64,000 nt of DNA from the NCBI RefSeq assembly GCF_000026545.1, contig NC_011601.1. One strand, written 5' to 3'. Shown one piece after another: positions 36,001-39,000 of the stretch. Numbering within the stretch: position 1 is the first letter of the stretch; the number at the start of each line of letters is the position of its first letter. The stretch comes from Escherichia coli O127:H6 str. E2348/69. GTDB lineage: Bacteria; Pseudomonadota; Gammaproteobacteria; Enterobacterales; Enterobacteriaceae. The position numbers are program-made.

Positions 36001-39000
36001 TTGCAAGTTGGCTATTCGTAGGAATAGAACCTTAGGCATGCTGAATGCGTTTTCTGAACATTGTTTTATAAACTGTGTCTGCTTGCTGTTGTGATCCTGC
36101 TTTTAGTGATGGTGATGATGGATTTCACCAGCAGGATAATGTTGGTACTGACTGATGGCGCTCTGGTCTGCGGCATTGTGGTATTGCTGTGGCCGATGAT
36201 GAAAAAACAGAATGAATAATCCTTGACTTTTTTGTTTACTGTTTATTAAAAAATCAACCGCATGGTGAATCCTCCTTGGAGGGGCTAAATGATCGAGTTT
36301 TAAGGGCACGTAGCGAGTTCTGTTTGATCATTGCAGAACTTAGCGGGAGGCGCCATGCGTACATCACTAATGTTATTTCCTTCTATCATTTTCCTTGTGA
36401 GTTCTGGCTGCGCATGGCGCGGCCTTTTTTTTATGACCTGCCACTGGCAGATGGTCATCCTGTGATTTGATTCCGGTTCCGGCTTTTTAACTCTGTTCCT
36501 GTACACGGGAGAAATTCTATGTCGATTAATCGTTATGATATTGGTTACAAGAAGTACCACGTATTGTGTTGAGATAGAAAGCATGGTGCCAGAGGTAAAT
36601 GCAGCAGCATAATAAAAAAGAGCCAGCGCAGAAGAGAACGGGTAAAAGAGTCTGCGCTGGCGTGGGGATATTCCCCGTGGAGAAATGATATGTAACACAC
36701 ATCGGGAACCTTTCTATATAAACATTATCATTATTGTCAATCATAACAGTCAGGTATTATGACGTTTATGCATCAGGGCCATCAGGAATTAACTGGTGGC
36801 TTTTTATTGTTGTCAGCTTCCGGATAACGGGAGACGGGGTATGTACCAGATGGAAAAAATAACAACAGGTGTGTCATACACCACGTCAGCGGTGGGGACG
36901 GGATACTGGCTACTGCAGTTGCTGGACAAAGTCTCCCCATCCCAGTGGGTGGCAATAGGCGTATTGGGTAGCCTGGTGTTTGGCTTGCTGACGTATCTGA
37001 CAAACCTTTATTTCAAGATTAAAGAAGATAAGCGTAAGGCTGCGAGAGGTGAATAATGTCGCCATCATTACGCAAGGCTGTTGCTGCTGCTATTGGTGGT
37101 GGGGCTGTTGCCATAGCGTCTGTGCTCATCACTGGTCCGAGTGGTGACGATGGCCAGGAAGGTGTCAGCTACATACCATACGAAGATATCGTTGGCGTAT
37201 GGACTGTATGTCACGGACACACCGGAAAAGACATCATTCCCGGTAAAACGTATACCGAAGCAGAATGCAAAGCCCTCCTGAATAAAGACCTTGCCATGGT
37301 CGCCAGACAAATTAACCCGTACATCAAAGTCGATATACCGGAAACAACGCGCGGCGCTCTTTACTCGTTCGTTTACAACGTGGGCGCTGGTAATTTCAGA
37401 ACATCGACGCTTCTTCGCAAAATAAACCAGGGTGATATCAAAGGCGCATGTGACCAGCTACGTCGCTGGACATACGCTGGCGGTAAGCAATGGAAAGGGC
37501 TGATGACCCGTCGTGATATTGAGCGTGAAGTCTGTTTGTGGGGGCAGCAATGAGCAGGGTAACCGCGATTATCTCCGCTCTGGTTATTTGCATCATCCTC
37601 TGCCTGTCATGGGCTGTTAATCATTACCGTGATAACGCCATCGCCTACAAAGAGCAGCGTGATAAAAAAGTCAGTGAGCTGAAGCAGGCGACCGCCACCA
37701 TTACTGACATGCAGCAACGCCAGCGTGCTGCTGATGTACTCGATGCTAAATACACGAAGGAGTTAGCCAATGCGAAAGCTGAAAATGATGCTCTTCGGCG
37801 TAAGCTTGATAATGGTGGTCGGGTGCTCGTCAAAGGAAAATGCCCTGTGCCAGCCTCAGCCAAAACCTCCAGCTCCTCCGGCATGGGCAATGATGCCACC
37901 GTCGAACTCTCTTCAGTTGCTGGACGAAACGTTCTCGGTATCCGGGACGGAATTATCCGTGACCAAACAGCACTGAGAACGCTTCAGGAGTACATCAGGA
38001 CGCAATGCCTGAAATAATTTTTTTGCAAATCACAAAGTCAATTTAATGAGCCTCGCGATGCGGGGCTTTTTTATGTCCGCAGTAAACGCGCATCTCACGC
38101 GCATATTAACGAGAGCCTTTCAGTAAGCGAGCCTGAGAAATGCCGTTATAGGTGGCGACCTCTCTCGGGCGGCTTTTCTGTGAGACAGGCTCACTTTCTA
38201 AAAGGTAAAGACGCTATGAATAATCATTCAGTTATTCCAGCCTTCGACTTCCGAGAAATGGTGCAAGCCAAAAACGGAGAGGTCGTTACCACATCCAGAA
38301 AAATTGCCAAGTACTTCGGCAAGCGACACGGTGATGTTCTCAGGAAAATCGAGCAGGTTAAGGCTGATTGCTCGCGTGAGTTTAGCCAACGCAATTTTGC
38401 GTCGGCTGATTATATCGATGAGCAGGGCAAGGTTCGCCCGATGTACAGCCTGACGAAAGATGGCTGGATCATGGTTGTGATGGGGTTCACCGGGAAAGCT
38501 GCTGCGGCAATCAAGGAGAGCTATATCGCAGCATTCAACTGGATGGCAGAGCAACTGAGCCGCCGCATGGCAATTGGCGAAGAAATGCAGCACCGCTACG
38601 CCATCAAAGAAACACGCTCAAAGCTGAAAGGTACGATCGGCAGTCGGTTAATGAACGAACGGAAGAAAGAGAAGCGTGTCCTGGCTGTCGAGCATGAATA
38701 CATTTTGCAGGTGACACAGCCTGAACTGCTGATTAATTGAAGATGTCATTACAAAGCCTATCTACGGGTGGGCTTGATAATGGCTTATACCCTGCACGGG
38801 ATAACTTAACTGATATCCCTTTTAACGGATAAAGGTATTCAAGCCTGACACATCATGCGCTGTATCGTCGCCGTATTCCCGCATTAACCATGATCGTAGC
38901 CCGACGGGGAATTCCTTCTGCGTGAGTGTGCGGGAATAATCAAAAACGATGCACACCGGGTTTTTACCGCGTTTATGATTCGTGGGTTTGTCCCTCATGC

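Follow-up and report, generated by a model that had tools for sequence, protein, structure and literature searches.

A phage 21-type lysis cassette with HK620-type spanins in a lambda-like prophage of Escherichia coli E2348/69

Layout and identity of the lysis cassette

The lambda-like prophage of the EPEC strain E. coli E2348/69, to which the window analysed here (the whole stretch of 64,000 nucleotides from contig NC_011601.1) is 100% identical, raises the question of how it would lyse its host: with a large-hole holin and a soluble endolysin, as lambda does, or with a pinholin and a signal-anchor-release (SAR) endolysin, as in phage 21. Pinholins are distinguished by heptameric pinholes of about 2 nm, which depolarise the membrane without releasing soluble endolysin. 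An earlier note on this DNA had placed a lysis cassette of the second kind at 36841-38017, and these limits are exact: the ATG at 36841 opens the sequence MYQMEK... and 38017 is the last nucleotide of the Rz stop codon. The cassette is intact and comprises four genes, for S (71 aa), R (165 aa), Rz (155 aa) and Rz1 (68 aa); no reading frame is truncated, and all four are colinear with functional genes of phages. Its features, with the two products of S given separately, are:

36841..37056, + strand: S, long form, 71 aa from Met1, class II holin of the S21 (pinholin) family; PF04971; RefSeq WP_000284524.1, 'class II holin family protein'
36850..37056, + strand: S, short form, 68 aa from Met4 (MEKITTG...), Met4 being invariant; presumed active pinholin by analogy with S21-68
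37056..37553, + strand: R, SAR endolysin (GH24, T4-lysozyme-like muramidase), 165 aa; PF00959; 3HDE; 4ZPU
37550..38017, + strand: Rz, i-spanin, 155 aa; PF03245, E 2.7e-28; phrog_13, E 1e-71
37770..37976, + strand: Rz1, o-spanin lipoprotein, 68 aa, inside Rz in the +1 frame; PF06085, E 8.3e-21; phrog_3198, E 2e-25

The stop codon of S (TAA, 37054-37056) overlaps the start of R by 1 nt, and the ATG of Rz overlaps the stop codon of R by 4 nt (ATGA), both as in phage 21. Pfam recognises the four proteins at E-values far past chance (1e-32 for S, 5e-45 for R, 3e-28 for Rz and 8e-21 for Rz1); NCBIfam returns no family above threshold for any of them. The RefSeq annotation of the cassette already carries the labels 'class II holin', 'lysozyme' and 'lysis protein'. 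What is read directly from the DNA is the structure of the genes, the families of their products and the retention of key residues and hydropathy.

The pinholin and SAR-endolysin assignment made in the earlier note is correct, because S and R match S21 and R21 and neither resembles its lambda counterpart: lambda S gives no alignment with S at E<=100, and lambda R has no detectable similarity to R (E 0.55). What the cassette has in common with lambda is the three-step logic of holin, endolysin and spanin, the principle of the dual start, seen in lambda as S105/S107, the embedding of Rz1 and residues 1-82 of Rz; lambda differs in that its S is a class I holin with three TMDs and its R a soluble transglycosylase, and in that the C-terminal half of Rz and Rz1 are divergent. 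The reference for phage 21 is the curated genome OL657228, found by tblastn with the S21 sequence (100% match), and for R21 also the structures 3HDE and 3HDF; the two cassettes agree in gene order, overlaps and the lengths of S and R. The preferred reading, to which a probability of about 93% is given, is that this is an intact lysis module of the phage 21 type in a lambdoid prophage, whose late transcription would start from a lambda-type pR' under antitermination by a lambda-type Q.

The holin and its two starts

S matches the profile of PF04971 ("P21 holin S") over positions 1-63 of 64, with a score of 112.2 bits (cut-off 26; E 1.1e-32), and aligns colinearly and gap-free with the curated S21-71, to which it is 75% identical. 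The two membrane segments described in the earlier note are evident in the hydropathy profile: TMD1 (residues 7-25) is weakly hydrophobic (KD 0.66), with 11 of its 19 residues being G, A, S or T, and TMD2 (residues 36-54) strongly so (KD 1.85), which is nearly the profile of S21 itself (KD 0.64 and 1.72). The N-terminus is short and the C-terminal tail, of 13 residues, is basic, as is expected of the S21 family, whose holins are found in 438 phage records. The G40xxxS44xxxG48 motif, reportedly described by Pang et al. in 2009 as lining or packing the pinhole, is complete in TMD2 as it is in phage 21; among 19 family members neither G40 nor S44 varies, and G48 hardly does. TMD1 differs from that of phage 21 in having lost the G10xxxG14xxxG18 spacing (G14T, G18V). 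GxxxG motifs have been noted previously (PMC13056207).

The 18 of 71 positions at which S differs from S21, the TMD1 glycines among them, would be compatible with S being a canonical large-hole holin, in which case the N-terminal segment of R would be irrelevant or an ordinary cleaved signal peptide. The pore-lining motif of TMD2 and the overall hydropathy are kept, however, and lambda S105 cannot be replaced by S21 (PMC9636201); a large-hole holin at this locus is very improbable.

Met1 (36841) and Met4 (36850) lie in frame, and each is present in all 19 family members aligned; the phage 21 record annotates products from both starts, S21-71 and S21-68, and it is precisely at the Met4 codon, 36850, that the DNA becomes homologous to phage 21. 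The earlier note had likened the MYQMEK terminus to the dual start of phage 21, and this stands for the two methionines, which are real and conserved, but not for the extension between them: it consists of Met-Tyr-Gln, with neither Lys nor Arg, where phage 21 has MKS. The start motif typical of dual starts in the S21 family is present, in other words, and the added charge is absent. The antiholin action of S21-71 has been attributed to its extra Lys (PMC13056207, PMC9636201); since the Met1 extension of S is without this Lys, fine timing control may differ here.

The MYQ extension is widespread, being the commonest single form among 120 homologue clusters (34, against 23 for MYR and 15 for MKS), and the same MYQMEK holin allele occurs in Stx phages at 93-99% amino acid identity. 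The defective prophage DLP12 of E. coli K-12 (essD-rrrD-rzpD) has the same Met1 and Met4 in EssD, which is 82% identical to S, but EssD starts with MKF and so retains the Lys. It is conceivable, if doubtful, that in the MYQ allele of the Stx phages and of this prophage the dual start yields no antiholin by way of an extra positive charge. If so, either both products of S could be equivalent holins, the second start being kept for translational reasons, or timing could be set otherwise: the bulky Tyr or the longer N-terminus might slow the exit of TMD1, for instance, or the ratio of the two starts alone might set it.

Whether a conserved hairpin that sequesters the Shine-Dalgarno sequence supports a functional dual start, or sets the start ratio, was asked of the region upstream of S:

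36817..36839, + strand: putative translation-initiation region of S, delimited from sequence and folds

A GGGAG Shine-Dalgarno sequence (36829-36833) lies 7 nt 5' of Met1, and a GGGG (36836-36839) 10 nt 5' of Met4. A predicted 6-bp hairpin, in which 36817-36822 pairs with 36828-36833, would occlude the GGGAG of Met1, and a similar hairpin is predicted in seven of eight relatives. Suggestive as the folds of the individual sequences are, the alignment fold is weak (-3.0 kcal/mol, with a covariation term of -0.27), as are the single-sequence z-scores (-0.5 at this locus, and from +1.5 to -2.7 over the eight loci).

The endolysin and the proposed course of lysis

R is assigned to PF00959 with E 5.5e-45 (153 bits) and matches full-length R21 (PDB 3HDE) with E 1.6e-104 over 165 of 165 residues and RrrD of DLP12 (4ZPU) with E 2.2e-105; it is 93% identical to R21 over its entire length. 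The catalytic triad E35, D44 and T50 (E-x8-D-x5-T) is present and aligns with those of R21 and RrrD, the E/D/T triad being tabulated for the P21 and DLP12 endolysins in PMC8228626. At the N-terminus, the basic residues R6 and K7 precede a charge-free, weakly hydrophobic segment of 19 residues, 12 of which are G, A, S or T, placing the SAR segment at about residues 8-26; 28 of the first 30 residues, the SAR segment included, are identical to those of R21, and the hydropathy of the segment is numerically almost the same. These are the properties by which SAR segments are recognised in PMC9239132, where membrane tethering followed by release, through depolarisation or a pinholin, constitutes the definitive test. 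The Gly/Ala-rich SAR helix from which the earlier note had R begin is present on closer analysis.

An A-I-A motif within this segment (residues 19-21) resembles a signal peptidase I site, and an ordinary, cleavable signal peptide was considered on its account. This candidate is rejected because R21 has the identical AIA motif, and yet its crystal structure (3HDE) is of the full-length protein and includes the segment.

Among SAR endolysins R sides with R21 rather than with Lyz of phage P1: residues 1-30, which include the SAR segment, contain no Cys, residue 44 is Asp where P1 Lyz has Cys, and P1 Lyz (1XJT) is matched with E 3e-9, as against 1e-104 for R21. Judged from these residues, activation would probably proceed by refolding in the manner of R21, and not by disulfide isomerisation in the manner of P1 Lyz.

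The course of lysis can be proposed step by step because the cassette is homologous to the experimentally studied system of phage 21 (PMC9636201, PMC9239132, PMC12642591, bioRxiv 10.1101/2021.04.20.440580); expression, pinhole formation, SAR release and spanin function in this prophage are all put forward by that analogy. Translation of S would start at Met4, and to a degree also at Met1, and the protein would insert into the inner membrane by its two TMDs. The weakly hydrophobic TMD1 would exit the bilayer, leaving TMD2 with its glycine and serine motif free to oligomerise; the TMD2 oligomers would form pinholes on the nanometre scale, and the membrane potential would collapse at a set time. 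R, exported by Sec, would until then be kept inactive at the membrane by the tether of its Gly/Ala-rich N-terminal SAR segment; depolarisation would free it to refold into the active muramidase. Rz, in the inner membrane, and Rz1, as an outer-membrane lipoprotein, would form a complex across the periplasm and, after loss of the murein, disrupt the outer membrane.

Spanins, mosaic junctions and meaning

Rz consists of an N-terminal TMD (residues 4-22, KD 2.61) followed by a periplasmic domain. Rz1, whose gene RefSeq does not annotate, has a VVGC lipobox (Cys19), a Pro-rich stretch of 11 residues and Cys27, and is preceded at 7 nt by an AGGAG Shine-Dalgarno sequence; it extends from 0.47 L to 0.91 L of Rz, which is within the typical range (PMC6139136). 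The periplasmic cysteines C98 and C153 of Rz and C27 of Rz1 are at positions equivalent to C99, C152 and C29 of lambda; spanin cysteines have a role in intermolecular disulfides (PMC6139136).

The earlier note had called both spanins near-identical to lambda, which the alignments contradict: Rz is 59% identical to lambda, 57% to phage 21 and 91% to HK620, the similarity to lambda being confined to residues 1-82 (82%, against 33% from residue 83 to the end), and Rz1 by local BLASTP identity is 47% identical to lambda, 48% to phage 21 and 95.6% to HK620 (41% to lambda and 43% to phage 21 in full-length global alignment). The Rz gene as a whole is 93.4% identical to that of HK620 at the nucleotide level, and homology to HK620 starts exactly at the Rz start codon; HK620 has the same embedded +1 architecture and the same lengths of 155 and 68 aa, but carries its spanins with S and R of the lambda type, whereas here they stand behind S and R of the phage 21 type. 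HK620, mEp460 and SPN9CC form an o-spanin family of their own (PMC6139136, Kongari et al., 2018). By its alignments the pair is of the HK620 type and lies outside the lambda o-spanin family (lambda, 21, 933W and others).

This bears on whether the whole S-R-Rz-Rz1 block could be that of phage 21 itself, with spanins of the lambda type. In phage 21 proper the spanins do match those of lambda, with 96% identity for Rz and 98% for Rz1 (PMC12642591), and the first 82 or so codons of Rz are common to lambda, phage 21 and this prophage; but DNA homology to both phages ends at 37797, and the low identity of the two spanins to lambda and their far closer match to HK620 refute a block taken entire from phage 21, which is rejected as next to impossible.

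The cassette is itself a mosaic, of an S21-family allele like that of the Stx phages, an R21-like endolysin and HK620-type Rz and Rz1. That the lysis module is a mosaic block was stated in the earlier note and is borne out by the flanks: Q upstream is 98% identical to lambda Q, and lambda DNA homology stops at 35054 and reappears in 37550-37797 only. Lambda Q and pR' are followed in order by a non-lambda insert, S and R of the phage 21 type and spanins of the HK620 type. Since the latter are not of the lambda type, there is one mosaic junction more than had been assumed. Phage 21 differs at this point as well, with Q21 in place of a lambda-type Q and with tRNA genes between Q and S that are absent here. 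Phage JLK-2012 is 97.9% identical in nucleotides over 36772-38071, which covers all four genes, but differs in its flanks, having tRNAs, tciA/B and a 1.85-kb yjhS-type gene upstream; the Stx2 and Stx1 phages listed (1717, 2851, Stx2a_WGPS and others; H9-H21) align in two pieces that together take in only 70% of the query. A hairpin 31 nt past the Rz stop codon marks where the module shared with JLK-2012 has its 3' edge:

38048..38068, + strand: terminator-like GC hairpin with T-run

On the way from pR' to the end of the cassette there are three terminator-like hairpins, which only a polymerase modified by Q would read through. At pR', the -35 and the Q-binding region are retained, and the -10 is GAAACT, against TAAATT in lambda.

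The unlike -10 is one of the observations that would fit a silent or domesticated remnant, no longer serving phage release, as in DLP12. R is as close to RrrD of DLP12 as to R21, and of 5,426 complete E. coli genomes 5,243 carry related cassettes (median 3 per genome), many of them surely within defective prophages. Against this, none of the four frames is truncated and all are colinear with functional genes. The prophage around them still has its Q, terminase, portal, head and tail genes, 97-99% identical to those of mEp460, phi458 and other viable phages, so that a remnant is unlikely and an intact module of the phage 21 type is preferred.

The pathway of pinholin, SAR endolysin and spanin in phage 21 is textbook knowledge, and the present cassette is a close relative of it, all of its biology being known; beyond correct annotation its importance is slight. 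The locus is nevertheless a clean case of the reassortment of lysis genes one by one, with junctions at gene boundaries, and the holin allele that is commonest in E. coli and in Stx phages is without the basic residue behind the antiholin model of S21-71, which leaves a small, testable question on the timing of lysis in Stx phages.

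Gene layout of the lysis cassette

The lysis genes of the prophage are four plus-strand reading frames, lying exactly where the earlier note had placed them (36841-38017):

36841-37056, +, holin S, 71 aa, N-terminus MYQMEK, with a second in-frame ATG at 36850
37056-37553, +, endolysin R, 165 aa
37550-38017, +, i-spanin Rz, 155 aa
37770-37976, +, o-spanin lipoprotein Rz1, 68 aa, entirely within Rz in the +1 frame

One base (TAATG) is shared by S and R and four (ATGA) by R and Rz, an arrangement identical to that of phage 21. The RefSeq record of E2348/69 labels the first three 'class II holin family protein', 'lysozyme' and 'lysis protein' (Rz) and leaves Rz1 unannotated, despite its lipobox (VVGC), its own Shine-Dalgarno (AGGAG) and a match to Pfam PF06085. 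An in-frame GTG upstream of S (36796-36840, +) would lengthen the protein to 86 aa; several database homologues of S, at 83-97 aa, are apparently annotated with such spurious N-terminal extensions.

Holin and endolysin

The cassette had been read as a pinholin/SAR-endolysin (signal-anchor-release) system rather than a lambda-type one, and this classification is correct: S matches Pfam PF04971 ('Bacteriophage P21 holin S'; E 1.1e-32) as well as PHROG holin families, while R matches PF00959 (E 5.5e-45) and, over all 165 residues, the structures of phage 21 R21 (3HDE; E 1.6e-104) and DLP12 RrrD (4ZPU; E 2.2e-105). Protein comparison found no alignment between S and lambda S, and no significant similarity between R and the lambda R transglycosylase (E 0.55). 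Our phage 21 reference is the curated genome OL657228, in which the long holin form, S21-71, is annotated as antipinholin, the short form, S21-68, as pinholin, and R21 as 'SAR endolysin'; S aligns to S21-71 without gaps at 75% identity, and R to R21 at 93%.

By hydropathy, S has the two transmembrane segments (TMDs) ascribed to it, the first weak (residues 7-25, KD 0.66, 11/19 residues Gly, Ala, Ser or Thr) and the second strong (residues 36-54, KD 1.85), practically equal to the 0.64 and 1.72 of the phage 21 holin. In TMD2, G40, S44 and G48 are kept across the family; in TMD1, two glycines of the phage 21 protein are absent from S (G14T, G18V).

The dual start also holds at the level of sequence: all 19 aligned homologues have Met1 and Met4, and the M-x-x-M start is kept in most of 120 homologue clusters. 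The extension itself calls for a correction to the earlier reading. In S21-71 it is Met-Lys-Ser, whose added Lys slows the exit of TMD1 and turns the long form into an antiholin (PMC13056207, PMC9636201); a mutational screen likewise tied the timing of activation to positive charge at the N-terminus (bioRxiv 10.1101/2021.04.20.440580). In S, by contrast, it is Met-Tyr-Gln, which adds no charge. MYQ is the commonest extension among the retrieved homologue clusters (34, against 23 for MYR and 15 for MKS), and Stx-converting phages carry the same allele. A small predicted hairpin, in which 36817-36822 pairs with 36828-36833, would block access to the GGGAG Shine-Dalgarno serving Met1; predictions for 7 of 8 relatives contain a similar hairpin, with weak statistics.

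The N-terminus of R carries R6 and K7 followed by a stretch of 19 residues, and 28 of its 30 N-terminal residues are those of R21 (sole changes P2S and I18V); as judged from its sequence it fits the SAR criteria of PMC9239132, and on this evidence the SAR domain claimed for R is present. The catalytic Glu35, Asp44 and Thr50 are kept, matching the triad that PMC8228626 lists for the enzymes of P21 and DLP12. Because the SAR segment is free of Cys and residue 44 is Asp, R would be expected to be regulated by R21-like refolding rather than by the disulfide switch of P1 Lyz.

Spanins and mosaic structure

Rz and Rz1 had been described as near-identical to those of lambda, which does not hold here.

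Identity of the cassette spanins to those of three phages
lambda: Rz 59%, Rz1 47%
phage 21: Rz 57%, Rz1 48%
HK620: Rz 91%, Rz1 95.6%

The genuine phage 21 spanins, for comparison, are 96% (Rz) and 98% (Rz1) identical to lambda (PMC12642591). Residues 1-82 of Rz are 82% identical to lambda and residues 83 to the end only 33%; the DNA match to lambda, like that to phage 21, ends at 37797, just past the Rz1 start, and HK620 shows 93.4% nucleotide identity over the whole Rz gene. By these comparisons the spanin pair is HK620-type. In the census of Kongari et al. (PMC6139136), the o-spanins of HK620, mEp460 and SPN9CC form a family apart from lambda, 21 and 933W, and the i-spanins of all these phages fall into one large lambda Rz family. 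The sequence hallmarks of functional spanins are complete: besides the lipobox and Shine-Dalgarno of Rz1 given above, Rz has a TMD at residues 4-22, Rz1 a Pro-rich stretch, and the periplasmic cysteines occupy lambda-equivalent positions (Rz C98 and C153; Rz1 C27).

The view of the lysis module as a mosaic block is right, as homologies to lambda, phage 21 and HK620 change along the locus. The prophage around it is lambdoid and shares 97-99% identity with mEp460 and phi458 in its terminase, portal, head and tail genes. Upstream, the late antiterminator Q (34356-34979, +) shares 98% identity with its lambda counterpart. The pR' behind it resembles that of lambda and keeps both the Q-binding region and the -35 (TTGACT), with GAAACT at -10 where lambda has TAAATT. 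Near the start of the late transcript, at 35054, lambda homology breaks off abruptly and gives way to ~1.8 kb of unrelated sequence (35055-36840). Phage 21 homology (86.5%) spans 36850-37797, and HK620 homology sets in precisely with the start codon of Rz (37550), HK620 pairing the same spanins with lambda-type S and R; on sequence the cassette is thus internally mosaic too. Phage JLK-2012 carries the whole module (36772-38071) at 97.9% identity between different flanks, and terminator-like hairpins at both module edges (36775-36803 and 38048-38068, +) coincide with the ends of this block. The neighboring features are:

35232-35975, multi-TM ORF, 247 aa, phrog_1521 (family of unknown function), in the insert between pR' and S
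36061-36219, DUF3927 ORF, in the same insert
36300-36698, minus, 'hypothetical protein' without family match, may be spurious
38216-38740, +, Rha-family regulator gene, between lysis cassette and packaging genes
39348-39842, +, DUF1441 gene, immediately preceding the large terminase and presumably encoding the small subunit

A small RNA may be encoded directly upstream of the lysis genes. Rfam gives a sub-threshold match to the full length of the STnc100 sRNA model (36230-36435, +; 37.7 bits, gathering score 47, E 1e-5), ending on a strong terminator hairpin (36406-36424), and a weaker sub-threshold match to Esr41 (36612-36701, -). Phage 21 and JLK-2012 have tRNA genes between Q and S, whereas ARAGORN finds none in the whole 64,000-nt window.

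Proposed lysis pathway

The cassette is ordinary, a textbook system with previously annotated genes and relatives in nearly every E. coli genome. The sequence establishes its gene structure, family membership and conserved residues; we infer that it is expressed and active, most likely through the steps described for phage 21 (PMC9636201, PMC9239132, PMC12642591): late transcription would start at pR' under Q; S would accumulate in the inner membrane and its TMD1 exit; pinholes driven by TMD2 would depolarize the membrane; Sec-exported, SAR-tethered R would then be released and refolded to degrade the murein, and the Rz-Rz1 complex would disrupt the outer membrane.
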